A stretch of DNA of 64,000 bases, from NCBI GenBank assembly GCA_905618915.1, contig CAJQTI010000046.1, forward strand, positions 7,441 through 71,440, written 5' to 3'. Source of the DNA: an uncultured Candidatus Pelagibacter sp. (GTDB lineage Bacteria > Pseudomonadota > Alphaproteobacteria > Pelagibacterales > Pelagibacteraceae). Below the pieces are notes generated by a model. That model saw only the letters and a program-made list of their open reading frames with translations, was not told where the DNA came from and ran no database searches. A program made the translations under genes and the position numbers. Shown here piece by piece: positions 5,054 to 21,041 of the stretch (position 1 is its first letter; every line of letters starts with the position of its first letter).

Positions 5054-5063
5054 TTTTTTTTAT

Positions 5064-5507
5064 TTAAGTGCATGAATAAAAAGAAATATTTTTTTCAGGA
5101 TTATCACCTTTTAAACCTATTGTAATTTCATGAACTAATTCACCTGATTTTCTGTTTATTATGCCTGACTCTGAGTAATTTTTTCCTTCATCAAAGGCTT
5201 TGAATAAAACAATGTCTTTATTCACAATTTTAACTTCTAATTTTTTATTTTGTGATAAGAACAGTGACAACCCACTGATCAAAAGTTTTTCTGGTTGTTT
5301 CGCATCAATTTCAAATTTATCTAAATTTTTATCATCTAAATCTTTGGCTAAAAAAGTTTTATAATTATTTTCTGAGTTCTTAATTATTTTTTTTTCTAAC
5401 TCACACACAAAACCAATTTTAATATTTTCTTGTATGTCTATATTTTTTGCAAAAGAAAAATTAAAAGCTAATAAGCTTAGAGATATATATAAAAAAAACT
5501 TTATCAT
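5064..5507 (-). CDS. Hypothetical exported protein
   Basis: Signal peptide (..FSFA). C-terminal IINRKSGE..C motif. Confidence 0.65.
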   Translation of the reverse strand: MIKFFLYISLSLLAFNFSFAKNIDIQENIKIGFVCELEKKIIKNSENNYKTFLAKDLDDKNLDKFEIDAKQPEKLLISGLSLFLSQNKKLEVKIVNKDIVLFKAFDEGKNYSESGIINRKSGELVHEITIGLKGDNPEKNISFYSCT

Positions 5508-5553
5508 TTAATTAATAAGTCCGTAAATTGAATCTGTGCGAAAGCACTATCTT

Positions 5554-5589
5554 AAAAAAAATCCCCCCCAACATTGTTGGGAGAGATTT
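5554..5589 (-). terminator. Intrinsic terminator downstream of tmoX
   Basis: Minus strand AATCTCTCCCAAC-AAT-GTTGGGGGGGATT (with G-U pairs) followed by a T run. Confidence 0.8.
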
Positions 5590-5609
5590 CGATTTATAAA
5601 CTTTTATCC

Positions 5610-6554
5610 TTATTTAGTAAAAGCTTGCCAAACACTCTTGTTATCAGCTAACCATTTTTTAGCCGCATCTTCATGAGTCATTTTGTCAAGGTCAACTAAA
5701 GCTGCCATTGCACCAATGTGACTTGTAGAGAATGACATTTTTTTAAATGCTCCTGCTGCTGCTGGATGTGTTTTTGGAAAATCTGCATTTACAGCTTTTT
5801 TCAAATAACCATCTGGCGAACCACATTTTCCATCACCACCATCTTCTGGTCTGCAACCAGCTGAATATGGAGGGAAGTCTATAAAAGTAAAACCAGCACC
5901 ATCTGTAAAGTTTGGTGTCCAGTTGAATATTATAGTTCCTCTTCCTTCTTTTTCAGCAGATTTAAGTTCAGCCCAAAGTGCATCTGCACTTCCAGCAAAT
6001 TTAACAGTCCAAAGATCTCCAAGTCCTAAAGCATCAACCCTTTGAGGTATTAAATCTCCATGCCAACTTTGTGGACCTTCTAACATTCGTCCTTTTCCAC
6101 CTGAATCAGGTGTAGTAAAGTTTTTAGCACAAGCTGGATTTTTTAATGCAGTCCAGTCTGGAAGACCAGGACATAATCCTTTTTCAACAACCCAGTTTGG
6201 ATATCCCATATCTTCAAGAGTTCTAGCTTCATGATCTCCCCAGTCTACTAAACCACCTTTGTCTAGTGCTGTTGTAAATGATTTACCAAACGCAGATTCC
6301 CACACTTCGTGAGATAAACTTACATCACCAATACGAATTGCTTCATAAACGGCTTGTGAGTCTGTGTTTACATATTTTACATTGTTTCCCATACTTTCAA
6401 AAATTCCACCAATAACGTGAGCCATTACAATTTGGCTTGACCAGTTATGAGTTGGAATAACGATAGGTTTTTTACTATCTGCAGCGTTAGAAACTCCAGC
6501 AAAACTTACAGCTGAAATTACTAAGGCAGATATTAATGATATTATTTTTTTCAT
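5610..6554 (-). CDS. tmoX: TMAO ABC transporter substrate-binding protein
   Basis: Signal peptide; OpuAC-type HNWSSQ, HEVWE, FNWTPNF. Divergent from tdm. RBS AAGGAGAG. Confidence 0.9.
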   Translation of the reverse strand: MKKIISLISALVISAVSFAGVSNAADSKKPIVIPTHNWSSQIVMAHVIGGIFESMGNNVKYVNTDSQAVYEAIRIGDVSLSHEVWESAFGKSFTTALDKGGLVDWGDHEARTLEDMGYPNWVVEKGLCPGLPDWTALKNPACAKNFTTPDSGGKGRMLEGPQSWHGDLIPQRVDALGLGDLWTVKFAGSADALWAELKSAEKEGRGTIIFNWTPNFTDGAGFTFIDFPPYSAGCRPEDGGDGKCGSPDGYLKKAVNADFPKTHPAAAGAFKKMSFSTSHIGAMAALVDLDKMTHEDAAKKWLADNKSVWQAFTK

Positions 6555-6672
6555 TATATTCTCTCTCCTTAATATTAATGTTTAAGTAAGCATGTTCTCA
6601 TTTATTAAATTTATAGTCAATGCCCTTTGATTATATTATGCTAACCCTCAATTATTTAAATTTACACTGGCA

Positions 6673-9000
6673 ATGCTACATACTAGTAAAGATATTAAAA
6701 ATCCTGGTTTAAGAACTTTACCATCTGGAGTTGAAAGATATTATGTAAAAGGTGGCGGTCTCTCAGTTATAGAAGTTTTACCAGATGATAAAATAGAAAT
6801 CATAAATGAAGAAGGAAGACAAATTTGTGAAATAATTGTTTTTAATTCAAAAGGCAAATCTGATTTATCAATTTTAAATTTAAAAGAAAATGCAAATGCT
6901 GACTTTTCAAAAAGAGCTATTGCCAATGATGAAAAAATTTCAAAACTATTTAAGAAAAAAAAATTAGATCTTAATAAAGCAAAATCATCCATTATTTTTA
7001 ATGAAGATTGTTTAATGGGAGAAAAGATTACCCTAACCTCTAAAGACAAATGTATAGTGATGATTGCTGCGCCAGGGAATGCTATGAATGTTCATGAACA
7101 AAATCCACCAACAGATTTAACCGTATTTTTAAGTAAAGCTAAATTTATAGAAACTGATGAGCAGTTTATTTTACCAGAACCTCTTAATGATCCAATAATT
7201 GAGCAACTTATAAAAAGAAGAACTGCAGAAACATATGAGGTAAAAGCTGGAGAATATATTCAGATAATTGATCCAGGTGGAAGACAATGTTCTGATTTTT
7301 TAGCTTTTGATACTCATAAATTAAATGATGGAATTCAAAGTATGTTAAATGATAAATCAACTCGAACATTTATGGGTGGTGCCTACCCTGGCCCAGGTTT
7401 ATTTTCAAAGTTTTATGATGATGATCATCAGGCTATGATTGAAGTAGTTAGAGATACAGTTGGCAAACATGATACTTTTAACCTTGCTTGCACCTCAAAA
7501 TATTATGAGGATATGGGTTATATGGGTCATATAAATTGTACAGACAATTTTAATAAAGGATTAGATAAATATGACATCAATTCTAGGAAAAGTTGGTCTG
7601 CAATAAATCTTTTTTTTAATACTGCAATTGACGCTAACAATGTTGCTTCGTTTGATGAACCTTACTCAAGAGCTGGTGATTATGTATTATTTAGAGCATT
7701 AAGGGATTTAACCTGTGTTTCATCTGCTTGCCCATGTGATGTGGATCCTGCAAATGGTTGGAATCCAACTGATATTTTTGTTAGGACTTATCCTAAGGAA
7801 AAAAAATATTCAAAAGCAATAGCATTTAGAATGAAAACAGACTCAGAGCCCAAACTAACTCAAGAAACTGGATTCCATAAAAGAACTTCTACCTTAACTA
7901 GAAACTTTGTTGAGTATAAAGGTTTTTGGTTAGCTAATAATTTTACAAGTTCTGGAACTATAAATGAATACACGGCTTGTAGAGAGAGTGCAATTGCAAC
8001 TGACCTTTCACCTTTAAGGAAGTTTGAAATTCTAGGTCCCGATGCAGAAAATTTAATGCAATATACATTAACTAGAAATGTTAAAAAATTATCTATTGGT
8101 CAGGTAGTGTATTCAGCAATGTGCTATGAAAATGGATGTATGCTAGATGACGGAACATTATTCAAGTTAGGACAAGATAATTTTAGATGGATAGGTGGAG
8201 ATGAATACAGTGGTGAATGGTTAAAGGAACAAGCAAAAAAGAAAAATTATAAAGTTTGGATAAAATCTGCAACAGATCATATTCACAACATTGCAGTGCA
8301 AGGTCCTAATAGTAGAAAAATCTTAGAAAAATTTGTTTGGACGCCTCCAATACAGCCTAACATTACTGAGCTTGAATGGTTCAGATTTACAATTGCAAGA
8401 ATAGACCATGAAACTGGAACACCTATTATAATTTCAAGAACAGGTTACACTGGTGAACTTGGTTATGAAATATGGTGTCATCCAAAAGATGCCAATGAAG
8501 TTTGGGATAAAGTTTGGGAAGCTGGAAAAGAGTTTGATATTACTCCATTGGGCTTAGAAGCTTTAGACATGGTTCGTATTGAAGCTGGTCTTATTTTCTA
8601 TGGTTACGAATTTGACGATCAAACAGACCCTTTTGAAGCAGGAATTGGATTTACCGTTCCGCTTAAAACTAAAGAAGATGATTTTATTGGTAAAGAAGAA
8701 TTAATTAAAAGAAAAGCAAACCCACAAAAGAAATTAGTTGGCTTAGAATTAGATGGACACGAACCTGCAGCTCATGGTGATAATGCTTATATAGGTCGAG
8801 GTCAAGTTGGTGTAGTAACTAGTGGAATGTTGTCTCCTAAACTAGGAAAAAATATTGCGCTATGCAGAATTGATGTTAAGTATTCTGAAATAGGAACTGA
8901 AGTAGAAATAGGAAAAATTGATGGTCATCAAAAAAGAATTATTGCTACAGTGGTGCCTTTTCCTTTCTATGATCCAACTAAATCTAAAGTCAGAGCTTAA
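6673..9000 (+). CDS. tdm: Trimethylamine N-oxide demethylase (DUF1989 + GcvT domains)
   Basis: HDTFNLAC, NCTDNFN, SSACPCDVDPANGWNPTDI (metal-binding Cys), then a GcvT domain (DLSPLRKFE, SRTGYTGELGYE, RIEAGL). Confidence 0.92.
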   Translation: MLHTSKDIKNPGLRTLPSGVERYYVKGGGLSVIEVLPDDKIEIINEEGRQICEIIVFNSKGKSDLSILNLKENANADFSKRAIANDEKISKLFKKKKLDLNKAKSSIIFNEDCLMGEKITLTSKDKCIVMIAAPGNAMNVHEQNPPTDLTVFLSKAKFIETDEQFILPEPLNDPIIEQLIKRRTAETYEVKAGEYIQIIDPGGRQCSDFLAFDTHKLNDGIQSMLNDKSTRTFMGGAYPGPGLFSKFYDDDHQAMIEVVRDTVGKHDTFNLACTSKYYEDMGYMGHINCTDNFNKGLDKYDINSRKSWSAINLFFNTAIDANNVASFDEPYSRAGDYVLFRALRDLTCVSSACPCDVDPANGWNPTDIFVRTYPKEKKYSKAIAFRMKTDSEPKLTQETGFHKRTSTLTRNFVEYKGFWLANNFTSSGTINEYTACRESAIATDLSPLRKFEILGPDAENLMQYTLTRNVKKLSIGQVVYSAMCYENGCMLDDGTLFKLGQDNFRWIGGDEYSGEWLKEQAKKKNYKVWIKSATDHIHNIAVQGPNSRKILEKFVWTPPIQPNITELEWFRFTIARIDHETGTPIIISRTGYTGELGYEIWCHPKDANEVWDKVWEAGKEFDITPLGLEALDMVRIEAGLIFYGYEFDDQTDPFEAGIGFTVPLKTKEDDFIGKEELIKRKANPQKKLVGLELDGHEPAAHGDNAYIGRGQVGVVTSGMLSPKLGKNIALCRIDVKYSEIGTEVEIGKIDGHQKRIIATVVPFPFYDPTKSKVRA

Positions 9001-9005
9001 ATAAT

Positions 9006-9356
9006 ATGACAGATGAAAAAAAAAGTCTTTTAGACTTCTGGGAGGATCAAGTTAAGCAATCCCACACTTCAAGTAATTATTATTTTAGAAAGTCACCTTC
9101 TCATTATCATTTGATGCTGTTAGTGATGCATGCATATAAGGTTGATGAAAAGCTTTCAGTAGAAGAATTAAAAACAAGACTTTTTAAAACTTCGAGGCCA
9201 AAAGCAGCTTTAATAATTAATGAAGCGTGTATAAAAGGATTCTTCTTTTTAGAAAAAACTTCAACTGATCAGCGAATAAAAAATATTAGGCCAAGTGAAT
9301 CTTTTATTAATGAATTTAATGAATACTTACTCAGACTAAAAAACATAAGCTATTAA
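9006..9356 (+). CDS. Winged-helix (MarR-like) putative DNA-binding protein
   Basis: 116 aa with an SRPKAALIINEA helix and a TDQRIKNI wing (DxR). Starts 5 nt after the tdm stop. Confidence 0.55.
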   Translation: MTDEKKSLLDFWEDQVKQSHTSSNYYFRKSPSHYHLMLLVMHAYKVDEKLSVEELKTRLFKTSRPKAALIINEACIKGFFFLEKTSTDQRIKNIRPSESFINEFNEYLLRLKNISY

Positions 9357-9459
9357 AGGTTTATTTAAGAGCATCACACTTAATTACTATTATATATATA
9401 TATTTTTTTGTTATAAAAATAATCCTATTAATTGTTTTTAAGAAGAATAACCTTTTCTT

Positions 9460-10788
9460 ATGTCAACTCTACCAACTAAAGCTAAAGTAGTAATTATCGG
9501 TGGCGGAATTCATGGGTTAAGTACAGCATGGAAACTTTCTGAAACTTATAAAAATCCAGGTGATATTGTAATCTTGGAAAAAAAAGATACGGCAGCAGGT
9601 GCAAGTGGAATAGCTTGTGGCGTAATAAGAAATAATTATTTTCAACCAGCTATGAGAGAATTAATGGCTCACTCTGTTTCAGTTTGGGAAAGTGATCCTA
9701 AAGCTTGGAATTACAATGCTGTAGGATATTTACAAATCTCTCCAGAAGTCATGCACGAAGATGTTGCTACAATTTATGAACAACAAAAAGCTATTGGATA
9801 TGAATCAGAATTTATAGAAGGTGAAAAAGCATGCACTAAATATATGAAAGGTATGTTTGATGATTGGCAGGCTCAAGGAATAACATCTGTACTTCATGAA
9901 AAAAAAGGTGGGTATGCATTTAATAAAGATTCAGTAAAAGCTCTTGAAAGTAAATCTATTATAAATGGTGTTAATATAATTAAGGGTGTAACGGTTACAG
10001 GATTTAAAAAAGGAAGTACTGGTAAATCGGTTTCTGGTGTTGAAACAGATAAGGGGCTTATTGAGTGCGATCAAGTCGTTGTTGGTGCCGGTCCTTGGGT
10101 TAGAGATTTTTGGAATATGTTAGAGCTTCCGAAATTTGCTAATATTAAAGGGCAAGATGGAAAGTTTCACAAAGAAGATATGTGGAAATACTGGATGTTA
10201 CAAGAAGGTGTTATTGGTGTTGATAAAGATTTTTTAAAAATGAATGATGGTGGTCAACCTCCAGTAATGCATGTCGACTCAACTGCACCATTATATTCAG
10301 ACACAACTAAAAAATTACTTACAGATGAACTTTGGGGAATTTATTATAAGCCAGATATCGAAGGTCTTGGAGTGCAGGGTGGTACATCTCCTTACATAGT
10401 TGACAAACATTTTGATGAAATAAATATTGATCCTTACGGGCTTGACTCTCCCGAATTTCAAACAACAGAAGCTTTTAATGATATGTGGTGTTCAGCTTTG
10501 GCTCATTGTCAAAAAAGGTTTGAGGGTAAAACAAATTTATATAGAAAAGGACCGTCAGGTGGTCTTGGATGTATGACTCCAGATAACTTTCCAATCTTTG
10601 ATAGATTTTTAGAAAATGTTTATATGATAGCTGATGCTAACCATGGATATAAAATGATTGGTGTTGGTGAGCTTGTTGCAAAAGAAATTCTCGGAACTGA
10701 AAGTGAATTATTAAAACCTTTCAGATTTGATCGTTATGAAAAAGGTGAACTTCACCCTACTTCAAATAGTCCATTTCCATGGAGCTAA
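9460..10788 (+). CDS. FAD-dependent amine oxidoreductase (DAO / sarcosine oxidase / MgdA-like)
   Basis: IIGGGIHGLSTAW, GASGIACG, VGAGPW, MTPD, HGYK motifs. Confidence 0.8.
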   Translation: MSTLPTKAKVVIIGGGIHGLSTAWKLSETYKNPGDIVILEKKDTAAGASGIACGVIRNNYFQPAMRELMAHSVSVWESDPKAWNYNAVGYLQISPEVMHEDVATIYEQQKAIGYESEFIEGEKACTKYMKGMFDDWQAQGITSVLHEKKGGYAFNKDSVKALESKSIINGVNIIKGVTVTGFKKGSTGKSVSGVETDKGLIECDQVVVGAGPWVRDFWNMLELPKFANIKGQDGKFHKEDMWKYWMLQEGVIGVDKDFLKMNDGGQPPVMHVDSTAPLYSDTTKKLLTDELWGIYYKPDIEGLGVQGGTSPYIVDKHFDEINIDPYGLDSPEFQTTEAFNDMWCSALAHCQKRFEGKTNLYRKGPSGGLGCMTPDNFPIFDRFLENVYMIADANHGYKMIGVGELVAKEILGTESELLKPFRFDRYEKGELHPTSNSPFPWS

Positions 10789-10914
10789 GCTCATACCTAT
10801 AAAATTAAATTATATAAATTTTAAATCGAAAATAATTTCTTTTACACAACTTATGCACGTAATTAACACATTGTAGTTATACAAATTATATATATTTATT
10901 ATAATCAAGATGCC

Positions 10915-10943
10915 TAGACACTAATATATTTTTCAGTTACGGT
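10915..10943 (+). promoter_or_regulatory. Candidate sigma70 promoter for the first GS-like/mgs-like operon
   Basis: TAGACA-17 nt-TACGGT, upstream of RBS AGGGAGAG. Confidence 0.4.
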
Positions 10944-10976
10944 TCGATAAATAAAAATTCATTAGAGGGAGAGATA

Positions 10977-12446
10977 ATGACTGATCTAGACAAGCACGTT
11001 GCACAACCAGGGAGAGACAAGTTAGTAAAGCAAGTTAGAGCTAAAATTAATGAACTAGGTGTTGAGTATATTTATTTTCAATTTATTTCTGTAACTGGAA
11101 GAGTTGTTGGAAAAGGTATTCCTACTGATCACTGGGAAAGAACTTGTGAAAAAGGCTTTCAATTAGTTTATGGAGCAACAGCAAACTTGTTTGTTGATCG
11201 TCATGGAGATTATATTGGTTATGGACCAGAAGCAAAAGAGCTAGTTGGTATACCTGATCCTGAAACTTTTTGTCAGCTTCCTTGGGATAAAAAAGTTGCA
11301 AGAGTATTTGTTACTTGTTTTAGAAATAGAGAAGAAAGAGATAATCCAGGCGCACATTTGACTTCGGATTGTCGTGGAAATTTAAGAATACATGCTCAAG
11401 AATTTAAAAAGAAACATGGCTACCAATTAAGAGTTGGAACTGAGCCAGAAATGATGTGGTTAACTAAGAATGAAGATGGTTCACCTACAGGTAAAGGTTA
11501 TTCTAAACCTTATTGCTATCATATAGATCAATTTGAATCTCTGAGACCAGTTTTCATGCAAGTATTTAAATACGCTAGAGCTATGGGTTTTGATATGATT
11601 CAAGGTGATCATGAGGATGCACCAGGACAATTAGAATTAAACTGGATGTACGATGATGTTTTGAGAAACGCAGATAGACTTTCTACTTACAGACAAATTT
11701 GCGCCCAAGTAGCTAGAGAGTTTAATTTGATAGCTTGTTTTATGACAAAACCTTTTATGGGTGTGTCAGCAAGTGGCTGTCATACGAACATGTCTTTATG
11801 GACAGGTGGAAAAGATAAAGTTAATAAACTATCTCATAAATCTCTACCAGGAATGGATGAGGTATTTACTTACGTTGAAGGTGGAACAAATACTTTTATG
11901 CCTGACACTAAAGATATTCAATTACCAGGTAAAATTGGTTTGAAAGCTATTGGTGGTGTGATGAAACATTTGGGAGCATTAACTGCAATTGGTTCATCTA
12001 CTGTAAACTCATACAGAAGATTGTGGGACACAGGATTTTGGGCGCCTGTTTATGCTGACTGGGGATTTCAAAATAGAACTTGTGGATTAAGAGTATCTGC
12101 ACCAGGAAGATTTGAATATCGTTCAGTTGATTCAATGCACAATCCATACTTAATGGGCTCAGGATTGTTAAAATGTTTTGATGATGGAATAACAAATAAC
12201 ATTGATCCAGGAAAGCCTGAGTCTAGAAGTATGTATGAAGCTCAAGCTGCTGGAAAAATAGTTAAAAAATTACCAATGAGTCTTGGTGAGGCTTTAAATC
12301 GTTTGGCAGAAGATGAGGTTATAAAATCAGCTATGCCAGATGAAATGTATAAAGTTTTCCATTGGTATAAAAACGATGAATGGGAAAAATTTTTAGGTGC
12401 AACAACTCAATGGGATCTAGATACTTATCTGGATTGTCTACCATAA
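10977..12446 (+). CDS. Glutamine synthetase-family gamma-glutamylamide ligase (paralog 1, GlnT-like)
   Basis: GTEPE, DHEDAPGQLE, SGCHTNMS, NRT..RV, EYRSVD. The FDGSS loop reads VYGAT and the E327 flap reads GFWAP. Confidence 0.85.
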   Translation: MTDLDKHVAQPGRDKLVKQVRAKINELGVEYIYFQFISVTGRVVGKGIPTDHWERTCEKGFQLVYGATANLFVDRHGDYIGYGPEAKELVGIPDPETFCQLPWDKKVARVFVTCFRNREERDNPGAHLTSDCRGNLRIHAQEFKKKHGYQLRVGTEPEMMWLTKNEDGSPTGKGYSKPYCYHIDQFESLRPVFMQVFKYARAMGFDMIQGDHEDAPGQLELNWMYDDVLRNADRLSTYRQICAQVAREFNLIACFMTKPFMGVSASGCHTNMSLWTGGKDKVNKLSHKSLPGMDEVFTYVEGGTNTFMPDTKDIQLPGKIGLKAIGGVMKHLGALTAIGSSTVNSYRRLWDTGFWAPVYADWGFQNRTCGLRVSAPGRFEYRSVDSMHNPYLMGSGLLKCFDDGITNNIDPGKPESRSMYEAQAAGKIVKKLPMSLGEALNRLAEDEVIKSAMPDEMYKVFHWYKNDEWEKFLGATTQWDLDTYLDCLP

Positions 12447-12474
12447 TCTTAATTATCAATAAAGGGAGAGAAAT

Positions 12475-13419
12475 ATGTGTGGTATCGCAGGTTTAATTCA
12501 TAGAGGAAAATCCTCCAATGTAGGAAGTGAACTACAGGGGATGTTACAAGCATTAAAGCATAGAGGGGAAGATTCTACTGGTTATGCTTTGTATGGTGAT
12601 ACAGATGGTAAAAATTTTATCATGCGTTTTAAAGTAGGTGAAAATGTAGGTGAAGGAAGCTCTTCAATAATGGAAGATGTTTCAGTTTACGATGCAAGAA
12701 AAAAAATAGTTGATCAATACCTCTCAGAATTAGGTGCAAAAATAGTTAAAGAAGAAAGAGTTCTACCCTATTCTTTAAGATATGAACTTGCTTACGATGC
12801 AAAAGATCTATTAGAGTTTTCACAAAAAATTGAAAGCATTCCAGGTGTTGAAATTCTTTCAATGGGAAAGTCTTTAGAGGTAATTAAAGATCTAGGTAAT
12901 GCTCAAATGGTTTGTGACAGATACAGTTTAGATAAAGTAGTTGGAACTCATGCAATTGGTCATGCTAGAATGGCTACTGAATCTGGCGTTGATATTAAGT
13001 CTGCTCACCCTTTTTGGGGTTATCCTTTTAGCGATGTTTCTGTGGTTCATAACGGCCAATTAACTAATTATTGGAACAACAGAAGATTACTTGAGAATAA
13101 AGGGATGAGATTTATGTCTGAATGTGATTCAGAGTTAATCGCCGTTTATATTGCCCAAAAAATGAGAGAAGGAGCATCTCTTGAAGAGGGCATGAAGGCT
13201 TCTTTAACAGGTCTTGATGGTGTGTTTACATATTTTGTAGCAACCAAAGATTCTTTGGGAATGGCAAAAGATACTATGGCTGCAAAACCTTTGGTTCTTT
13301 ATGAATCAGACGATCTAGTAGCAATGGGTTCAGAAGAAATAGCAATCAGATCAGTTCTACCACAAGAGATAGATACATATGATCCATATGATGGAGAGGT
13401 AAAAGTATGGCAAATTTAA
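12475..13419 (+). CDS. glxB: Class II glutamine amidotransferase, MgsA/GlxB-like (paralog 1)
   Basis: N-terminal MCGI, HRG.DSTG, GHARMATES, HNGQLTN, DSE. Confidence 0.82.
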   Translation: MCGIAGLIHRGKSSNVGSELQGMLQALKHRGEDSTGYALYGDTDGKNFIMRFKVGENVGEGSSSIMEDVSVYDARKKIVDQYLSELGAKIVKEERVLPYSLRYELAYDAKDLLEFSQKIESIPGVEILSMGKSLEVIKDLGNAQMVCDRYSLDKVVGTHAIGHARMATESGVDIKSAHPFWGYPFSDVSVVHNGQLTNYWNNRRLLENKGMRFMSECDSELIAVYIAQKMREGASLEEGMKASLTGLDGVFTYFVATKDSLGMAKDTMAAKPLVLYESDDLVAMGSEEIAIRSVLPQEIDTYDPYDGEVKVWQI

Positions 13420-14261
13420 AGACTACAGAAAATAAGACAAAGTCACAATCAATGGGTATGCACTCAGAAGTTTTGACTGGAAGAACTCAACAAAAGTTTT
13501 TTAATCCTGATGAAGGTGAAAATCTTTATTATTTTGGCACTTACGATGTTGATTTTAATAAAAGAACAGAGCTAGATGTTAAAGAAATGACAGCTGCTGA
13601 TGCTAATAAAGAAATTGATAACTTAATGAGCCAAGGTTTTGGAACAATTGTAATCAAAAACCCTCAAGGAAAACACAGTTTAGGTGTTGGTATTTTAAAT
13701 AAACTAAATTTAATTTTTGAAGGAAGTTTAGGTTATTTTGGTATGGGATCTTGTGACGGACCTACTGTAAGAATTAATGGTAGAGTTGGTTGGTCTTGTG
13801 CAGAAAACTTAATGGCTGGAAAAGTTGTTATAGAAAAAAATGCTGGATCTTGTTTTGGTGCAGCTATTAGAGGTGGAGATTTAATTTGTAAAGGTAGTGT
13901 TGGTGCTAGAACTGGTATCGATATGAAAGGTGGAACTATCATTGTTGGTGGCGATGCTGGGGCTTTTACAGGTTTCATGATGCAAAGAGGAAGAATAATT
14001 ATTTTAGGTGATGTTGGAATAAACTTAGGTGACTCAATGTATGATGGTACTATTTTTATTGGTGGTAAAATTGGTTCTTTTGGCAGTGATGCAATTCCTG
14101 CTGATCTAACTGATACAGACCAAGACTGGTTAAAAAGAAAATTGAAAGTTGCAGAGATTGGTGAAAAATTTGACGTCAGTAAAATGACAAAAATAGTCGC
14201 AGGGAAAAAACTTTGGAACTATGATAATCTAGAACCTCACGAAAAGAAAGGAGCTATATAA
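13407..14261 (+). CDS. glxC: GXGXG beta-helix protein, MgsB/GlxC-like (paralog 1)
   Basis: Repeated G-x-x-G..M.GG units of the GltB C-terminal/FwdC fold, with an N-terminal extension. Confidence 0.8.
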   Translation: MANLKTTENKTKSQSMGMHSEVLTGRTQQKFFNPDEGENLYYFGTYDVDFNKRTELDVKEMTAADANKEIDNLMSQGFGTIVIKNPQGKHSLGVGILNKLNLIFEGSLGYFGMGSCDGPTVRINGRVGWSCAENLMAGKVVIEKNAGSCFGAAIRGGDLICKGSVGARTGIDMKGGTIIVGGDAGAFTGFMMQRGRIIILGDVGINLGDSMYDGTIFIGGKIGSFGSDAIPADLTDTDQDWLKRKLKVAEIGEKFDVSKMTKIVAGKKLWNYDNLEPHEKKGAI

Positions 14262-15685
14262 TGGCTAAAAAGAAAACTAAAAAAAATGAAAAAAAATTAA
14301 AAAAAGTAAGTGGCAATGTTGGTGGAAAAGCTGACGTTCACGTACCTGAAGAAGGAAAAAGAAATAAAAGTTTATTAGGTCACAATGCTATTTTTACTCC
14401 TGAAGTTATAGACGATATTCATATTAAAGCTCAACTTGGAAGATACAGAATGCGTGGAATGGCATTAATGAAAAAAATTCCTACATTTGATGATTTAGTA
14501 TTTTTACCAGGAACTCTTACAAGATTTGTAATTGAGGGTTACAGGGAAAAATGTGAAACAAAGACTATAATCGGACCAAATTGTGAAAACCCAATTGAAC
14601 TAGATATACCAGTGTATATTACAGGTATGAGTTTTGGGGCACTTTCTTATGAAGCAAAAACTGCTTTAGCAAGAGGAGCAACAATGGCTGGGAGTGCTAC
14701 ATGTTCAGGTGAGGGTGGAATGATTCCCGATGAAAGAAGATATTCTGAAAAATGGTATTACCAATGTATTCAATCAAGGTATGGTTTCAATCCTCATCAC
14801 GCTCAACTAGCTGATGCGATTGAAGTATTTATTGGACAAGGACAAAAAGTTGGAATGGGTGGACATTTAATGGGTCAAAAAGTTACTGACCAAGTTGCAG
14901 AAATGAGATCCCTACCCTCTGGTATTGATCAAAGATCCCCAGCAAGACATCCAGACTGGTTAGGTCCAGATGATTTAGCTTTAAAAGTTGAAGAATTAAG
15001 ACAACTTACAAAAAATAAAGTGCCTATTCAATTAAAGCTAGGTGCATCAAAAGTTTATGATGATGTTCGTATGGCTGCAAAATGTAATCCTGACTCAATC
15101 TTTTTAGATGGGATGGAAGGTTCAACTGGAGCTGGTCCTCATATAGCTGCTGCAAATACCGGTATTCCTGGTATTGCTGCAATCAGAGAAGCAAGAAGAG
15201 CTATTGATGATGTTGGTAAAACTGGTCAAGTAACTTTAATTTATGCTGGTGGTGTCAGAGATGGTGCTGATATGGCGAAGGCTTTAGCCCTAGGTGCTGA
15301 TGCAATAGCAATTGGGACTGGTGCTTTGATAGCCTTGAACTGTAATAAAGATATACCAGAAGCTAATTTTGAAAAAGAAATGGGTGTAAAAGCTGGTGAC
15401 TGTTATCACTGCCATACTGGTCGTTGTCCAGTTGGTGTTGCAACACAAGATCCTAAATTAAGAGCAAGATTAAATCCTGATGATGCTGCATTAAGAGTTT
15501 ATAATTACCTTCATGCAATGACATTAGAGGCTCAACTTTTAGCAAGAGCATGTGGTAAGACCAACATTCACTCTTTAGAGCCTGAAGATTTAGCCGCTCT
15601 AACAATGGAGTCATCTGCTTTAGCAAAAGTTCCATTAACGGGAACTAACTTCACTGTTGGTGTTGATAACTATCACAAAATATAA
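14261..15685 (+). CDS. glxD: FMN-binding glutamate synthase-family protein, MgsC/GlxD-like (paralog 1, retains Cys cluster)
   Basis: GMSFGALS, SGEGG, SPARHPD, DGMEGSTGA, GGVRDG, CYHCHTGRCPVG. Confidence 0.82.
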   Translation: MAKKKTKKNEKKLKKVSGNVGGKADVHVPEEGKRNKSLLGHNAIFTPEVIDDIHIKAQLGRYRMRGMALMKKIPTFDDLVFLPGTLTRFVIEGYREKCETKTIIGPNCENPIELDIPVYITGMSFGALSYEAKTALARGATMAGSATCSGEGGMIPDERRYSEKWYYQCIQSRYGFNPHHAQLADAIEVFIGQGQKVGMGGHLMGQKVTDQVAEMRSLPSGIDQRSPARHPDWLGPDDLALKVEELRQLTKNKVPIQLKLGASKVYDDVRMAAKCNPDSIFLDGMEGSTGAGPHIAAANTGIPGIAAIREARRAIDDVGKTGQVTLIYAGGVRDGADMAKALALGADAIAIGTGALIALNCNKDIPEANFEKEMGVKAGDCYHCHTGRCPVGVATQDPKLRARLNPDDAALRVYNYLHAMTLEAQLLARACGKTNIHSLEPEDLAALTMESSALAKVPLTGTNFTVGVDNYHKI

Positions 15686-15694
15686 GAGGTAAAT

Positions 15695-16102
15695 ATGGAT
15701 AAGAAAAAAACAAAAACAAAAATTAAAAAAGAAAAAAAACTTAAACTAGGTACTTTTAAAGAGACTGCTAGGGAGAAACTAATTGGTCAACATATTGGGT
15801 ATAGATATGATGTTAACTTATTGCCTGATTATAAAAAGATTACTCCATTCTTAAAAAAATATGTAGAAGCTATGGGATGGGATGATCTTAACTGGTTAGA
15901 GGATGTTCATATGGGTTATGAAGAAGATAGACCTGCTGTATTTTGTAGAAATGCAAATGGTTGGGTAACTATTCCAAAATCAATTAAATTACCAAACAAC
16001 CAACAAGATAGAGATATGATTGCAAGAGAGCTTTTAGTTAAGTTTCAAATGTCTAAAAAACACCCTCTTGTTGATTTGAAAAAAGCTTACCTTAAGTTTT
16101 AG
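15695..16102 (+). CDS. Hypothetical protein at the end of the paralog-1 operon
   Basis: RBS GAGGT; 9 nt after the glxD-like stop; motif WDDLNWLEDVHMGYEE. Confidence 0.75.
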   Translation: MDKKKTKTKIKKEKKLKLGTFKETAREKLIGQHIGYRYDVNLLPDYKKITPFLKKYVEAMGWDDLNWLEDVHMGYEEDRPAVFCRNANGWVTIPKSIKLPNNQQDRDMIARELLVKFQMSKKHPLVDLKKAYLKF

Positions 16103-16148
16103 TATCTCAATCAAAGGTTGATTATTTTTCAAAATATGAAGCTATTAC

Positions 16149-16201
16149 TTGCTTATTTAAGCAATGTATAGTTTGTCACGCCTCTAAAAATTTTATAGTC
16201 T
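16149..16201 (+). promoter_or_regulatory. Promoter of amt with an upstream palindrome
   Basis: TTGCTTA-TT-TAAGCAA (16149-16164), then TTGTCA-17 nt-TAGTCT (16173-16201). Confidence 0.6.
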
Positions 16202-16229
16202 TTCCAAAACTAATAAGGAGAGAGAGATT

Positions 16230-17630
16230 ATGGATGATCAATTAGGCGCTCTTACAGTTATATTTACAGAATTTTACTACTGGGTAACAGTAGTATTGAT
16301 GTTCCTGATTCACGTTGGGTTTTGTATGTATGAAGTTGGGGCCTCACGTTATAAACATCACCAACATACTTTAATGAAAAATACCATGGTAATACCACTA
16401 GTAACGGTAACCTGGTTTTTCTTTGGTTGGTGGATTTACTGGGCATTCCCAACAGGACCGGGAATAGCACCTTCAATAATGAATGATAGTTCAGCATTAA
16501 TTACTGACGAAAGTACTTTTAGTGCAAAATGGTATGTAGCAAATACTGAATTTATGGCTGTCAACTTAGGTGACCGTATAAGTGGAGTATTTTGGGCTGC
16601 ATTCTTACTATTTTCATGGACAGCTGCTTCAATTGTTTCTGGAGCAATCATTGAAAGAATTACAACTTTTGCATTTGGTATTTTAGCAATTGCAATTGGT
16701 TCGTGCTTCTGGGTAATTGATGCTGCTTGGGGATGGCACTTTGATGGATGGATGCTTAAAATTTTAGGATATCATGACGCTTACGCATCAGGAGTAATTC
16801 ACGCAATTGCGGGTGGGTTTGCTTTAGGTGTTCTAATCGTTTTAGGACCTAGAATTGGAAAGTTCTCATCAAGTGGTGAACCAAGAAATATTGGACCAAG
16901 AAACCCATGGCTAGTTACGGTTGGATTATTTTTAATCTATACTGGTTTCTGGGGATTTTATGCGGCATGTAATATACCGATATTTGATCTTGGACCTGAA
17001 TATGGAATGGAAGGTGTAACGTACTGGACAGCAACAAACATATATGTAACCCCAACCACACTGAGTGGAATAACCTATAACTTCCTGATGTCATTATCAG
17101 GTGGATTATTGGCTGGATACGTGGTCGCTAAAGGTGATCCATTCTGGACTTACTCAAGTGGACTAGCTGGGATCATCTGTGCATCTGCAGGTAATGATTT
17201 GTATCACCCGATACAAGCAATGCTTATTGGTGCGATCGGTGTTGTTGTAGCATACAAAATGCATTACTGGGTTGAACGTAAGTTCAAAATTGATGATGCA
17301 GTTGGTGCGGTAGCAGTACATGGTTATGCAGGTGTTGTTGGTCTTATAATTTGCGGATTTGTTTTAAATGGTTACCCAGCATCTGGATATAATGTTGGAG
17401 CTATGTGGGACGGATCAACTTATGCATCAATCAACCCACTTGGTCAATTCCTTGGAGCAATTATAATGTTCGGAGTTCTTGGAATGTTACCAGGCTACGT
17501 TATTGCTAGAATACTAAGCGCTTTTGGTAAATTAAGAATACCGCGTGAAGTTGAAATAGCAGGACTAGACTATGAAATAATGGAGGACGATAGAGAAGCT
17601 GAAAAAGCGGTCGCCTCTTCAACTAGGTAA
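16230..17630 (+). CDS. amt: Amt-family ammonium/methylammonium channel (divergent)
   Basis: Multiple TM helices; GFCMYEVG, SIVSGAIIER, twin His (GVIHAIAG and DDAVGAVAVHG), LGPRIGKF. Confidence 0.9.
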   Translation: MDDQLGALTVIFTEFYYWVTVVLMFLIHVGFCMYEVGASRYKHHQHTLMKNTMVIPLVTVTWFFFGWWIYWAFPTGPGIAPSIMNDSSALITDESTFSAKWYVANTEFMAVNLGDRISGVFWAAFLLFSWTAASIVSGAIIERITTFAFGILAIAIGSCFWVIDAAWGWHFDGWMLKILGYHDAYASGVIHAIAGGFALGVLIVLGPRIGKFSSSGEPRNIGPRNPWLVTVGLFLIYTGFWGFYAACNIPIFDLGPEYGMEGVTYWTATNIYVTPTTLSGITYNFLMSLSGGLLAGYVVAKGDPFWTYSSGLAGIICASAGNDLYHPIQAMLIGAIGVVVAYKMHYWVERKFKIDDAVGAVAVHGYAGVVGLIICGFVLNGYPASGYNVGAMWDGSTYASINPLGQFLGAIIMFGVLGMLPGYVIARILSAFGKLRIPREVEIAGLDYEIMEDDREAEKAVASSTR

Positions 17631-17642
17631 AGGAGAAAAAAT

Positions 17643-17867
17643 ATGGCTACAGTTACAAACTGGATAGATCATTTAAGTGCAAAAGAGGTTGTCGGAGCAG
17701 TTTATCCGGGGGCTGGATCCACTGAAACTTTACTAGTTTTTCTTGGTGTAGTTTTTTGGATTGGCTGGCATGTTTTAACTGCTAGATCTGAGAGTGAAAA
17801 ACTTTCAAGATTAGCAAGAAAAAGACATGGTGCTAATGATCATAAGAGCAATATTACCGACTGGTAA
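17643..17867 (+). CDS. Small single-TM protein cotranscribed with amt
   Basis: Strong RBS AAGGAG; TM segment LLVFLGVVFWIGWHVL; lies before the terminator. Confidence 0.8.
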   Translation: MATVTNWIDHLSAKEVVGAVYPGAGSTETLLVFLGVVFWIGWHVLTARSESEKLSRLARKRHGANDHKSNITDW

Positions 17868-17883
17868 TATCGACTAAAAATTT

Positions 17884-17916
17884 GGGCGCTACTTAATTGT
17901 GGCGCCCTTTTTTTTT
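17884..17916 (+). terminator. Intrinsic terminator after the amt operon
   Basis: GGGCGCTAC-TTAATT-GTGGCGCCC followed by T9. Confidence 0.88.
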
Positions 17917-17932
17917 ATAAAATTATACAATC

Positions 17933-18085
17933 ATGGATAGAAATAATAACGAAGATCACAGACCAAGTAAGATGAGAGGTGTCGTTTTTCCAAAAGCAAA
18001 GTATGGAGTGATAGCGGCTATTATCATCATTGTCGTAGGAAATATTTTCTACTATAAAGATTTTCTACTGTCTTTAATAAAATAA
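17933..18085 (+). CDS. 50-aa small membrane protein (below the ORF-track cutoff)
   Basis: MDRNNNEDHRPSKMRGVVFPKAKYGVIAAIIIIVVGNIFYYKDFLLSLIK; fills the gap before mgsA. Confidence 0.6.
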   Translation: MDRNNNEDHRPSKMRGVVFPKAKYGVIAAIIIIVVGNIFYYKDFLLSLIK

Positions 18086-18099
18086 ACTTAAAAAAATTT

Positions 18100-18984
18100 A
18101 TGTGTGGAATTGTTGGCATCTATTTAAAAACTAAAAAATTTGAAAAAAATTTAGGAAAGATGCTGTCAGGTATGCTTAATAACATGGAATCTCGTGGACC
18201 AGACAGTGCTGGCTTTGCAATTTACAAAGATGAAAGTAAAAAAATATACAAGTTTTCTTTATGTATTAATGATTTAAATTTTAATAGCTTTAAGAAAGAA
18301 ATAACTAAAAAAATTAAAAAAGCTAAACTTACTCAAATCTCAGATCATGTAATTCTAAAAACTCTAGAGCAGCCAAAGAAAGTAATTGAAATAATTAATT
18401 CTAATTTTCCTAAAGTATCTATAGTTGGGTATGGTCGATCAATAGAAATATTTAAACAAGTTGGCAATCCTAAAGATGTAGTAAAAAAATTTAGATTAGA
18501 TAGTTTTAGTGGCACTCATGGAATAGGCCATACAAGAATGGCTACGGAAAGTGCAATAACTACTGATGGATCTCACCCCTACTCGACTGGTGAAGATGAG
18601 TGTTTGGTCCATAATGGATCATTATCAAATCATAATAATTTAAGAAGAGAGCTCACTAAAAAAGGTAACGTCTTTAACTCTGAAAATGATACTGAAGTTG
18701 CAGCAGGATATGTTTCTAACAGTTTATCAAATAATAAATCTTTAAAAGATACACTTACATCAGGTCTTAAAGATTTAGATGGTTTTTATACTTTTATTGC
18801 AGGAACTAGAAAAGGTTTTGCTGTTGTTAGGGATGAAATAGCATGTAAACCTGCAGTAATAGCAGAAACAAAAAACTATGTTGCAATAGCATCTGAATTT
18901 CAAGCAATGGCTCACTTACCAGATGTAAATAGTGCAAAAATTTTTGAACCAGAGCCTGGTATTGTTTACTCATGGGGAAATTAA
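18100..18984 (+). CDS. mgsA: N-methylglutamate synthase subunit A
   Basis: MCGIVG, RGPDSAG, GHTRMATES, HNGSLSN, NDTEV; mgsABC-gmaS order. Confidence 0.85.
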   Translation: MCGIVGIYLKTKKFEKNLGKMLSGMLNNMESRGPDSAGFAIYKDESKKIYKFSLCINDLNFNSFKKEITKKIKKAKLTQISDHVILKTLEQPKKVIEIINSNFPKVSIVGYGRSIEIFKQVGNPKDVVKKFRLDSFSGTHGIGHTRMATESAITTDGSHPYSTGEDECLVHNGSLSNHNNLRRELTKKGNVFNSENDTEVAAGYVSNSLSNNKSLKDTLTSGLKDLDGFYTFIAGTRKGFAVVRDEIACKPAVIAETKNYVAIASEFQAMAHLPDVNSAKIFEPEPGIVYSWGN

Positions 18985-19667
18985 TGAAATTAGATTTAAA
19001 GAAAAAAAAATTAAGAGAAATTAATAATACTTTACAAAATTTAGATAATAAAAAAAATGATAGAGACTTTGTAATTATAAATCCTGAGGGAAGCCATGCA
19101 TTATGTGCTGGGTTAAATCAGGAGATGAAAGTTTTAATCAAAGGCCATGTTGGCTATTATTGTGCAGGTATGAACCAAAAAGCACATGTAACAATAGATG
19201 GAAATGTTGGAACAGGTGTTGCTGAAAATATGATGTCTGGAACAGTACATGTTAAAGGTAATGCTTCACAATCTGCTGGCGCAACTGCTCATGGTGGATT
19301 ACTTGTAATTGATGGAGATGCTAGTTCAAGATGTGGTATTTCAATGAAAGGAGTTGATATTGTGGTTAAAGGTTCGGTTGGTCATATGTCTGCATTTATG
19401 GCTCAATCTGGAACAATGTTAGTTTGTGGTGATGCTGGTGAAGCTTTGGGTGATAGTCTTTATGAAACAGATATTTTTGTTAAAGGATCAGTTAAATCTT
19501 TAGGTGCGGATTGCATAGAAAAAAAAATGGAAAAGAAGCATTTAAATAAAATTTCAGCTCTTTTAAAAAAAAGTGAAATAAAAAATATTAAACCAGATAG
19601 TTTTAAGAGATATGGTTCGGCACGAAAACTTTATAACTTTAATATCGATAATGTATCAAGCTATTAA
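18972..19667 (+). CDS. mgsB: N-methylglutamate synthase subunit B
   Basis: GXGXG repeats, GYYCAGMN, YGSARKLYNF. Alternative start at 18984. Confidence 0.85.
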   Translation: MGKLMKLDLKKKKLREINNTLQNLDNKKNDRDFVIINPEGSHALCAGLNQEMKVLIKGHVGYYCAGMNQKAHVTIDGNVGTGVAENMMSGTVHVKGNASQSAGATAHGGLLVIDGDASSRCGISMKGVDIVVKGSVGHMSAFMAQSGTMLVCGDAGEALGDSLYETDIFVKGSVKSLGADCIEKKMEKKHLNKISALLKKSEIKNIKPDSFKRYGSARKLYNFNIDNVSSY

Positions 19668-19669
19668 TA

Positions 19670-20998
19670 ATGTCAGATAATAAAAAAACTCATCCTCGTA
19701 TATCATGGACTTTTGATGAGTATACAAATTCAGAAATAAGAAGAGCAGCAGCAACTGGAATTTATGATATTAGGGGTGGAGGTTCAAAAAGAAAACTTCC
19801 TCACTTTGATGATTTACTTTTTCTTGGTGCTTCAATGTCTAGATATCCTTTGGAAGGATATAGAGAAACATGTAATACAAAAGTAACTTTGGGAACACGT
19901 TATGCAAAAAAACCTTTGGAGTTAGATATTCCCATTACAATTGCTGGAATGAGTTTTGGTGCATTATCAGGAAGAGCTAAAGAAGCTTTAGGGCGTGGAG
20001 CAAGTATGGCTGGTACATCTACAACTACTGGTGATGGTGGGATGACGCCAGAAGAGAGAGGACAGTCTAAAAATTTAATCTATCAACTTTTACCTTCTAG
20101 ATATGGAATGAATCCTGATGACCTTAGAAAAGCAGATGCTATTGAAATTGTTATAGGACAAGGTGCTAAACCAGGTGGTGGTGGGATGTTATTAGGTCAA
20201 AAAATTAGTGATCGTGTTGCAGAAATGAGAACTTTACCCAAAGGTATAGATCAAAGGTCTGCATGTAGACATCCTGATTGGACAGGTCCTGATGATTTAA
20301 AAATTAAGATTTTAGAAATAAGAGAAATTACTGGTTGGAAAGTTCCAATATTTATTAAAGTTGCAGGGGCAAGACCATATTATGATACTGCTCTTGCTGT
20401 TAAAGCTGGGGCAGATGTTGTTGTTTTAGATGGAATGCAAGGTGGAACGGCCGCTACTCAAGAAGTGTTTATTGAAAATGTAGGTCAACCAACTTTAGCA
20501 TGTATTAGACCTGCCGTAGACGCACTTCAAGATTTAGACCAACATAGAAAAGTTCAGTTAATTATATCTGGTGGAATTAGAAATGGTGCAGATGTAGCTA
20601 AAGCAATGGCTCTTGGAGCAGATGCAGTTTCAATTGGTTCTGCCGCAATGATTGCTTTGGGAGACAATGATCCTAAGTGGGAGAAAGACTATAATAAATT
20701 AGGAACTACTGCAGGAGCTTACGATGATTGGCATGAGGGAAATGACCCAGCAGGAATTACAACTCAAAAACCTGAGCTAATGAAACGCTTTGATCCTATT
20801 GCTGGTGGACGACGTTTATCAAATTATTTAAAAGTAATGACACTTGAAGCTCAAACAATAGCTAGAGCCTCTGGTAAAAATGATTTACATAATTTAGAAC
20901 CTGAAGATTTATGTGCACTTACAGTTGAATCTGCTGCTATGGCAAGAGTTCCATTAGCAGGAACTAGCTGGATACCTGGAGTAAAAGATAAAAAATAG
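19670..20998 (+). CDS. mgsC: N-methylglutamate synthase subunit C (FMN-binding)
   Basis: SMSRYPLEGYRE, GQGAKPGGGG, RSACRHPDW, YDDWHEGNDPAG. Confidence 0.87.
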   Translation: MSDNKKTHPRISWTFDEYTNSEIRRAAATGIYDIRGGGSKRKLPHFDDLLFLGASMSRYPLEGYRETCNTKVTLGTRYAKKPLELDIPITIAGMSFGALSGRAKEALGRGASMAGTSTTTGDGGMTPEERGQSKNLIYQLLPSRYGMNPDDLRKADAIEIVIGQGAKPGGGGMLLGQKISDRVAEMRTLPKGIDQRSACRHPDWTGPDDLKIKILEIREITGWKVPIFIKVAGARPYYDTALAVKAGADVVVLDGMQGGTAATQEVFIENVGQPTLACIRPAVDALQDLDQHRKVQLIISGGIRNGADVAKAMALGADAVSIGSAAMIALGDNDPKWEKDYNKLGTTAGAYDDWHEGNDPAGITTQKPELMKRFDPIAGGRRLSNYLKVMTLEAQTIARASGKNDLHNLEPEDLCALTVESAAMARVPLAGTSWIPGVKDKK

Positions 20999-21000
20999 TA

Positions 21001-21029: not shown

Positions 21030-21041
21030 AAGAAATAAAAC

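Follow-up and report, generated by a model that had tools for sequence, protein, structure and literature searches.

We analysed a 64,000-nt stretch of DNA from an uncultured Candidatus Pelagibacter sp. (GenBank assembly GCA_905618915.1, contig CAJQTI010000046.1, positions 7,441–71,440; hereafter the window), in which the gene for trimethylamine N-oxide (TMAO) demethylase (tdm) is followed by a gene module that we call set 1. Set 1 encodes a GmaS-like amine ligase (GS1), three MgsABC-like synthase subunits (A1, B1 and C1) and a 135-aa protein (u135), with a DAO-family flavoprotein (DAO) as its usual neighbor. We consider it likely, though by no means certain, that set 1 removes the dimethylamine (DMA) made by Tdm and is the non-homologous counterpart of DmmDABC in TMAO/trimethylamine (TMA) islands. 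We assign this role to set 1 because of its distribution, its synteny and its displacement of dmmDABC. This makes set 1 a strong candidate, open to direct testing, for the DMA step that is missing in SAR11. The window also contains the canonical mgsABC-gmaS cluster, here called set 2 (A2, B2, C2 and GS2). The original prediction, made from the letters of the window, had placed a FAD oxidoreductase, a glutamine synthetase (GS) family ligase, an mgsA/B/C-like set and a 135-aa gene after tdm, and six open reading frames (ORFs) on the plus strand correspond to them (Table 1).

The strongest single argument that set 1 and dmmDABC are functionally interchangeable is a cassette swap between two genomes of one genus, G465 and G052, which are collinear over ≈30 kb with flanks of 65–94% identity. 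The slot in G465 reads DAO, dmmD-dmmA-reductase-HODM (heme-dependent oxidative N-demethylase) and TMAO permease, and there is no GS1 anywhere in this genome. The corresponding slot in G052 reads DAO, GntR, GS1-A1-B1-C1-u135 and TMAO permease. The permease flanking the slot belongs to NF053774 (834 bits), and DAO is kept at 94% identity beside the complete dmmDABC of G465. The unit that alternates with dmmDABC is GS1-A1B1C1-u135, not DAO.

The dmm genes were traced with the HODM alpha family PF11927, with NF041259 and PF22289/PF22290 for DmmA, and with the FAD/2Fe-2S reductase; these models find true dmm in G465, G482, G503, G569, and G587. PF11927 alone was rejected as a Dmm marker because tdm-negative genomes contain a second subtype that lacks DmmA, and NF041259 was added. 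In the order to which G229 belongs (101 genomes, more than 57 families) 25 genomes were tdm-positive. Twelve of these (8 families) have set 1 only, nine (6 families) have dmm only, none has both and four have neither (raw Fisher p = 4.6e-4 for set 1 vs dmm, with the relatives being non-independent). In three of the latter four, Tdm falls short of the family cut-off. PF11927 matches in five set-1 genomes of this order belong to the subtype without a DmmA partner, while the tdm-adjacent PF11927 controls do have DmmA. In the order of G052, three of the six genomes with tdm but no GS1 contain dmm, and so do three of the 53 that have GS1 as well. The observation that the window has no dmm-like genes holds more widely: no DmmA, reductase or HODM alpha was detected in the window or in its own genome, the source assembly of which is 60% complete, and no dmm subunits were detected in complete SAR11 relatives. 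The complete congener G013 has no match to PF11927 or NF041259 and no protein of the Oxidored_FMN family, which includes the trimethylamine and dimethylamine dehydrogenases (TMADH/DMADH).

The DmmA-less PF11927 subtype was itself seen in several genomes of the G229 order (G538, G523, G570, G574, G390, G582, G564, G571, and others, further G512, G559, G518, and G583). These HODM-alpha-like proteins are presumably N-demethylases for other substrates.

An evenly spread sample of 400 genomes of the phylum contained only two with GS1, too few for a co-occurrence test, and the follow-on sampling was centered on these two. Among 41 SAR11 relatives, GS1 and Tdm were both present in 14, both absent in 23 and discordant in 4, whose assemblies are fragmentary or gave only partial matches. 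Canonical gmaS is present in 13 SAR11 relatives that have neither GS1 nor Tdm. Set 1 is thus gained and lost together with tdm in SAR11, and gmaS/set 2 is not. The 62 genomes of the G052 order divide into 53 with both tdm and GS1, six with tdm only, one with GS1 only and two with neither, so the co-occurrence of set 1 with tdm, which the original prediction had proposed as a check, is seen in this order as well as in the SAR11 relatives. Only three set-1 genomes have no intact tdm, and the module is accordingly not common without it. One of the three is the complete genome G229, where only a C-terminal remnant of tdm is left and C1 contains a frameshift (L093:11934-13240; L094:612-1261), while GS1, A1, B1, u135, DAO, and the neighboring gene for an Amt channel seem unaffected. 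The island appears to be decaying, unless a sequencing error is responsible, and this suggests that the module decays once Tdm is lost.

The gene order GS1-A1-B1-C1-u135 was intact in every context examined. A gene-order scan of genome contigs returned only SAR11 loci (80 loci) and describes the order within SAR11, not breadth. Outside SAR11, set 1 was found in SAR324, in a metagenome-assembled genome (MAG) of the Arenicellales, in two genomes of 3–5 Mb and in two other alphaproteobacterial orders. Its surroundings contain tdm, tmoXWV or a TMAO permease, tmm and a divergent Amt. Identity across lineages is 70–80% for GS1 and 75–80% for C1, as compared with 51–57% for Tdm. Amt orthologs with 64–69% identity adjoin set 1 in L085, G229, G549, G537, G533, G580, G496, and L116, which fits a channel that moves methylated amines and not only ammonium. 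The divergent Amt and a small downstream ORF (55–75 aa) were seen to travel together with set 1 in L085, L093, L109, L111, L112, L114, L115, and L116.

Set 1 and set 2 are old paralogs. The identity between them is 28% for the ligases, 32% for A, 35% for B and 51% for C, in agreement with the original prediction that the two sets are clearly different. GS1 falls outside the GmaS equivalog (TIGR03105, 289 bits vs a cut-off of 469.6), to which GS2 belongs with 613 bits. GS2 also aligns over its full length with RhGmaS (PDB 7cql, 578 bits) and is a clear ortholog, whereas GS1 aligns only over residues 79–281 (165 bits), no better than with archaeal GS. The amine-pocket and catalytic residues of RhGmaS that we tested (Lys30', Tyr147, Gln175, Asp177, Glu179, Glu186, Asn188, and Arg312) nevertheless all have equivalents in GS1 (K46, Y181, Q209, D211, E213, E220, N222, and R367), and these are invariant across 14 orthologs. 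GS1 also has the motif DHEDA of the GmaS type where true GS has HHEVA. Relative to RhGmaS, GS1 contains three inserts (69–78, 118–124, and 281–306) and a 5-residue deletion. The 10-residue insert 69–78 lies within the equivalent of the Asp50' loop of GS (PMC7948447), which covers the amine site of the neighboring subunit. A second, more divergent GS1-like gene (57–62% identical to the query) was observed beside the ortholog in G455, G460, G492–G494, G534, and G580.

A1, B1, and C1 have the layout of MgsABC, i.e., an N-terminal nucleophile (Ntn) amidotransferase with N-terminal Cys, a GXGXG protein and an FMN-binding Glu_synthase protein, all tightly spaced. They are not orthologous to the gmaS-adjacent mgsABC, given the low identities above and the extra conserved partner u135, and both synthases coexist as distinct genes in G013, G229, G549, and G533. 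The N-terminus of A1 (MCGIAG, with the nucleophile Cys at position 2) is invariant in 14 orthologs, and the mean column identity across orthologs is 74% for B1 and 85% for C1. C1 is not part of GltBD: it scores 131 bits against the GltB family (cut-off 1047), the large subunit of GltBD is expected to be a fused protein of ≈1500 aa, a separate GltB of ≈1504 aa is present in SAR11 relatives, and no GltD-like partner was found linked to set 1. A third kind of split glutamate-synthase-like system was noted in the Arenicellales MAG (L116:151-5539), on the strand opposite to Amt-DAO-set 1, and consists of a GATase, a fused GXGXG and FMN protein and a GltD-like Fer4_20/Pyr_redox_2 protein.

C1 has four invariant Cys residues (C361, C381, C384, and C389), and the C2 of the window lacks all four Cys of the motif C-x19-C-x2-C-x4-C-P. 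The Fe-S ligands were rejected as a distinction between the two sets, as typical MgsC has the same four Cys. The difference in the window arises because a Cys-less MgsC sub-lineage exists in SAR11, and it is not a set-1 trait. In nine of the 14 SAR11 loci with C2 this Cys-less form is conserved (89–98% identical), the other five keep the Cys, and so do the non-SAR11 MgsC proteins examined. SAR11 thus seems, by sequence, to contain two cofactor variants of MgsC.

The u135 gene always directly follows C1, in SAR11 as well as in the non-SAR11 islands examined, and its product has 65 invariant positions. No match was obtained in Pfam or NCBIfam, in a wide fold search of the PDB (best Z 3.4) or in the ESM Atlas outside its own clusters. 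Remote homologs were not found either, and the domain was not part of any informative fusion in longer proteins. The predicted three-chain complex docks u135 between the beta-helix of B1 and residues 153–222 of C1. The model of u135 + C1 + B1 scores 0.90, as compared with 0.34 for the best control; in the benchmark, 58 of 80 solved complexes and 2 of 110 mismatched pairs attained this mark. At least 81% of the contacts recur between runs, and the partner pLDDT is at least 76. Solved complexes resembling that of u135 do not exist, so the score is unlikely to reflect structures that the predictor had already seen. The model supports, but does not demonstrate, binding of u135 to B1 and C1, and the 135-aa gene, whose function the original prediction had left open, is now read as probably encoding the fourth subunit of the set-1 synthase.

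Most SAR11 islands combine two ligases with a single synthase. The commonest order across the 80 SAR11 loci is ...C1-u135-amt-74aa-gmaS without canonical mgsABC, which is present in only ≈15 of the 80 loci, including the window, and absent from ≈65. G008, G010, and G018 have no second MgsC anywhere in the genome and retain gmaS with set 1 as the sole Mgs-type synthase. G004 has neither tdm nor GS1 and contains canonical MgsC and gmaS. GS1 was never found without A1B1C1-u135, and GmaS occurs with either synthase. As canonical mgsABC is absent from most SAR11 islands, A1B1C1 must also serve GmaS. The simplest reading is that the set-1 synthase takes the products of both ligases and the canonical synthase only that of GmaS, and that the non-redundant parts are the two ligases and not the synthases. 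This pattern also fits a GS1 product that would be bulkier than that of GmaS. The argument that a streamlined genome would not keep two redundant modules therefore applies to the ligases, both of which are kept; the two-synthase state of the window is that of a minority of islands.

DAO is a frequent but dispensable helper of set 1 and not a substitute for Dmm. It lies adjacent to or near GS1 in 10 of the 13 non-SAR11 set-1 islands, is absent from the 10 kb around set 1 in L085, and is missing from four dmm-type islands of the G229 order. A DAO ortholog was not found in G549 and G504, which are complete, tdm-positive and dmm-negative set-1 genomes, in a search without an internal positive control; the same query elsewhere finds orthologs with >530 bits by tblastn. 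The flavoprotein that the original prediction had included in the pathway is thus confirmed as a common partner but not as an obligatory one, the more so as it persists beside dmmDABC in G465. Its profile scores are far below the cut-offs for soxB (80 vs 529 bits) and soxA_mon (36 vs 480 bits), and only the FAD half (residues 9–232) aligns to the sarcosine oxidase families. The nearest solved relatives, sarcosine oxidase beta and the dimethylglycine oxidases (≤55 bits), are all N-methyl amino-acid oxidases, and we propose that DAO is an N-demethylating oxidase or dehydrogenase for N,N-dimethylglutamate and/or N-methylglutamate. Flavin amine oxidases require an amine lone pair, and a tertiary amino acid would therefore be a likelier substrate for DAO than an amide. 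A GntR/FCD regulator was seen beside DAO and GS1 in non-SAR11 islands (L091:9231-10034 in G052, L086:7638-8321, and L116:7677-8393) and is missing from the SAR11 islands; this candidate sensor could disclose the substrate of the pathway through its ligand.

A tentative scheme for the chemistry can be drawn from these data. GS1 would use ATP to join DMA to the gamma-carboxyl of glutamate, forming N5,N5-dimethylglutamine (gamma-glutamyl-dimethylamide). The A1B1C1-u135 synthase would cleave the amide and channel DMA to the FMN site, where its addition to the 2-oxoglutarate skeleton and a reduction would produce N,N-dimethylglutamate. Loss of one methyl group, through DAO or, in its absence, through a different N-methyl amino-acid dehydrogenase, would then yield N-methylglutamate, which would enter the usual N-methylglutamate pathway. 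For most SAR11, gamma-glutamylmethylamide made by GmaS would be a further substrate of the set-1 synthase. We give this complete route, with its inferred intermediates N5,N5-dimethylglutamine and N,N-dimethylglutamate, slightly less than an even chance. The same slightly unfavorable odds apply to the broader proposal that SAR11, SAR324, Arenicellales and many marine and soil bacteria possess an ATP-dependent, glutamate-linked DMA route built from a new ligase clade and a four-subunit synthase, with first steps that may need no oxygenase. Of the original claim that set 1 fills the DMA gap, the role is supported by the synteny with tdm, joint gain and loss, near-exclusivity with dmmDABC and the cassette swap; the intermediates are still conjecture.

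What becomes of the DMA from the abundant and highly expressed Tdm of SAR11 has been an open question since 2013–2017. Smith et al. (2013) already raised the question of DMA metabolism in strain HTCC1062 (PMC3870248). SAR11 genomes have been described as lacking dmmDABC (PMC5520151), and this absence led to the idea of a "genetic bottleneck," by which DMA leaks to the atmosphere and forms aerosols. A 2022 study reported weak growth of HTCC1062 on TMAO as sole nitrogen source and postulated an unidentified "isoenzyme of DmmDABC" (PMC8918994). This strain carries the set-1 module and no dmm (SAR11_1303 tdm, 1304 DAO, 1305 GS1, 1308 C1, 1309 u135, and 1310 amt; the canonical set is SAR11_1313–1315 mgsABC and SAR11_1316 gmaS). 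Its GS1 and C1 proteins, which had been annotated as glnT/gltB2, were detected in culture and fall slightly under nitrogen limitation, where GlnA and GltBD rise and DAO is strongly induced, being the second most induced protein (PMC3870248). The divergent Amt protein of HTCC1062 was present only under nitrogen-replete conditions. A literature search for a role of gamma-glutamyl-dimethylamide, dimethylglutamine or dimethylglutamate in the use of amines by microbes gave nothing relevant, and the searchable literature was not found to describe a DMA pathway of this kind.

Several points weigh against a role of set 1 in DMA removal. Set 1 occurs without tdm in G537 and G496. Both dmmDABC and set 1 are present in three complete genomes belonging to a single genus (G482, G483, and G486), and seven tdm-positive genomes have neither, with G462 and G535 as clear cases (G447 and G475 are fragmentary, and the Tdm of G502, G536, and G584 is below the family cut-off). 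The larger set-1 genomes contain TMADH/DMADH-family proteins, which may provide another means of using DMA there. The raw statistics overstate the support, since related genomes are non-independent. GS1 can be called an amine ligase by its sequence, from which a preference for DMA over methylamine (MMA) is not assignable, and it may instead be specific for MMA or broad in its choice of amines. RhGmaS has a Km of 16 mM for DMA vs 27 μM for MMA (PMC7948447). Activity of RhGmaS with trimethylamine has also been reported, although no amide can form from this amine, and assays of phosphate or ADP release therefore probably register uncoupled ATP turnover as well. Part of set 1 serves MMA in most SAR11 whatever GS1 does. 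Finally, Lidbury et al. (2017; PMC5520151) note that oxidation of DMA has yet to be demonstrated for any SAR11 strain.

Several of these points would be explained if set 1 were simply another N-methylglutamate pathway for MMA, perhaps the main one in SAR11, with GS1 as a second GmaS isozyme that differs in its kinetics and DMA being excreted. The conservation of all RhGmaS pocket residues in GS1, which also counts against a DMA-specific enzyme, and the fact that most SAR11 islands, and also G008, G010, and G018, have no Mgs-type synthase other than A1B1C1 agree with this explanation, as does the published "metabolic bottleneck" view that DMA is excreted (PMC5520151). However, it leaves unexplained why set 1 and dmmDABC exclude each other among the tdm-positive genomes of the G229 order and why one replaces the other in the same slot. 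Streamlined SAR11 moreover always keep both ligases while dropping one synthase, set 1 tracks tdm and gmaS does not, and HTCC1062 obtains nitrogen from TMAO, which requires breakdown of DMA. We therefore regard an exclusive role in MMA use as unlikely.

A role of set 1 confined to MMA would also follow if DAO alone oxidised DMA to methylamine and formaldehyde, as has been speculated in the literature, and GS1 and A1B1C1 processed only the resulting methylamine. DAO does belong to the superfamily of N-methyl amino-acid oxidases, lies directly upstream of GS1 in most islands and responds strongly to nitrogen limitation in HTCC1062 (PMC3870248). It would, however, be redundant beside the complete dmmDABC of G465, was not found in G549 and G504 (with the limit on that search given above) or near set 1 in L085, and is not the part that alternates with dmmDABC, which makes this explanation quite improbable. 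We consider it very unlikely that set 1 assimilates ammonia or another small amine as a split GS/GOGAT-like system with its adjacent Amt. The GS and glutamate-synthase family domains, the linked Amt gene and the earlier glnT/gltB2 annotation (PMC3870248) are in line with such a function, but the GS1 pocket is of the DHEDA type and not HHEVA, GS1 and C1 respond to nitrogen limitation in the direction opposite to GlnA and GltBD, there is no linked GltD-like partner, and set 1 occurs in TMAO islands across phyla, alternating with dmmDABC. Removal of DMA by set 1 remains the reading that we prefer.

Compared with known systems, set 1 most resembles the N-methylglutamate pathway (GmaS and MgsABC with MgdABCD) of Methylocella silvestris, Methyloversatilis universalis, and Ruegeria pomeroyi, with which it shares the GS-family ligase followed by Ntn amidotransferase, GXGXG, and FMN subunits, the RhGmaS-type amine pocket (PDB 7cql) and the four-Cys motif of typical MgsC. 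Unlike this pathway, set 1 is a separate old clade with extra loops in GS1, a predicted u135 subunit and usually a dedicated DAO, and it follows tdm and alternates with dmmDABC, neither of which the canonical gmaS-mgsABC does. Set 1 and DmmDABC share the slot, the linkage to tdm and TMAO transporters and a complementary distribution, and therefore the same role in DMA removal is inferred for both. Yet there is no homology between them: Dmm is a heme/FMN/2Fe-2S monooxygenase that depends on O2 and NADPH and sets free methylamine plus formaldehyde, while set 1 would be ATP-dependent and glutamate-linked, with predicted O2-free first steps, and would probably bypass free methylamine. GlnA and GltBD have the Gln-synt_C, class-II GATase, GXGXG, and FMN/Fe-S families and the logic of an amide followed by channeling in common with set 1, which differs by its split subunits, the lack of GltD, the GmaS-type pocket, the opposite response to nitrogen limitation and the context of TMAO catabolism.

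The putrescine (PuuA-D), isopropylamine (IpuC) and ethanolamine gamma-glutamylation routes also tag an amine with glutamate by a GS-like ligase before degradation. In these routes the glutamylated amine is oxidised and a gamma-glutamyl hydrolase acts last, and secondary amines are not among their known substrates. They use no Mgs-type synthase, and polyamines and ethanolamine were set aside as substrates for this reason. Sarcosine oxidase and dimethylglycine oxidase/dehydrogenase share the FAD domain with DAO and catalyse the N-demethylation to which we propose an analogy, but DAO is very distant from them and has a single subunit and no fused folate domain.

If set 1 does act on DMA, there would be no DMA "metabolic bottleneck" for the most abundant bacterioplankton, and estimates of marine DMA turnover and nitrogen remineralisation would change. 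GS1 and u135 could then serve as new markers in metagenomic surveys, a secondary amine would join the substrates known for GS-family ligases, and Mgs-type synthases would gain a fourth subunit.

Table 1. Features of the tmm–gmaS region, given in window positions.
Feature	Position	Strand	Family or remark
3' part of tmm (TMA monooxygenase, FMO-like)	1–797	+	gene start upstream of window
tmoW, permease of TMAO ABC importer	858–3011	-	BPD_transp_1
tmoV, ATPase of TMAO ABC importer	3015–4046	-	ABC_tran
tmoX, TMAO-binding protein (OpuAC family)	5610–6554	-	OpuAC domain
tdm, TMAO demethylase, makes DMA	6673–9000	+	NF053776; DUF1989 + GCV_T + GCV_T_C
u116, small 116-aa protein	9006–9356	+	between tdm and DAO
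DAO-family FAD flavoprotein (SAR11_1304 type, annotated "monomeric sarcosine oxidase")	9460–10788	+	PF01266
GS1, GmaS-like ATP-dependent amine ligase, predicted (SAR11_1305 type)	10977–12446	+	Gln-synt_C
A1, Ntn (class II) amidotransferase subunit of set-1 synthase	12475–13419	+	GATase_6/7
B1, GXGXG beta-helix subunit	13407–14261	+	PF01493
C1, FMN (Glu_synthase) subunit	14261–15685	+	PF01645, 302 bits
u135 (SAR11_1309 type), 135 aa	15695–16102	+	directly after C1
Divergent Amt channel (SAR11_1310 type)	16230–17630	+	PF00909
74-aa ORF after Amt	17643–17867	+	ORF
Strong terminator	17884–17907		after 74-aa ORF
A2 (mgsA)	18100–18984	+	canonical mgsABC
B2 (mgsB)	18972–19667	+	canonical mgsABC
C2 (mgsC)	19670–20998	+	canonical mgsABC; Cys-less variant
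gmaS (GS2), canonical gamma-glutamylmethylamide synthetase	21042–22367	+	TIGR03105

The window has a GC content of ≈31% and is a SAR11 genome fragment, with Pelagibacter strains Uisw_090 and HTCC9565 as its closest named relatives among the SAR11 loci scanned. Its tdm is genuine (NF053776, 1160 bits vs a cut-off of 1100). The tmm 3' end was found as an ORF fragment (84–797), and the FMO-like protein of L085 used as a tblastn query against the genome of the window matched G000:C46:6903-8228 with 57% identity, which reaches window position 788. The divergent arrangement of tmoX and tdm is the same in HTCC1062 (PMC8918994), and tmoWV is syntenic with tdm in other lineages too. Within set 1 the genes are tightly packed, with 28 nt between GS1 and A1, overlaps of 13 nt (A1/B1) and 1 nt (B1/C1) and 9 nt between C1 and u135.

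Promoter-like matches did not exceed the frequency seen in shuffled sequence, and Rfam gave nothing above the gathering score over positions 5000–24000. A weak suhB/mmgR match (17849–17922, 28 bits vs a gathering score of 41) overlaps the intrinsic terminator behind the 74-aa ORF and is probably just its hairpin. The small u116 has no match in Pfam or NCBIfam, and its counterpart was not seen in the non-SAR11 islands examined. In SAR11, u116 is found between tdm and DAO in 71 of the 80 loci.

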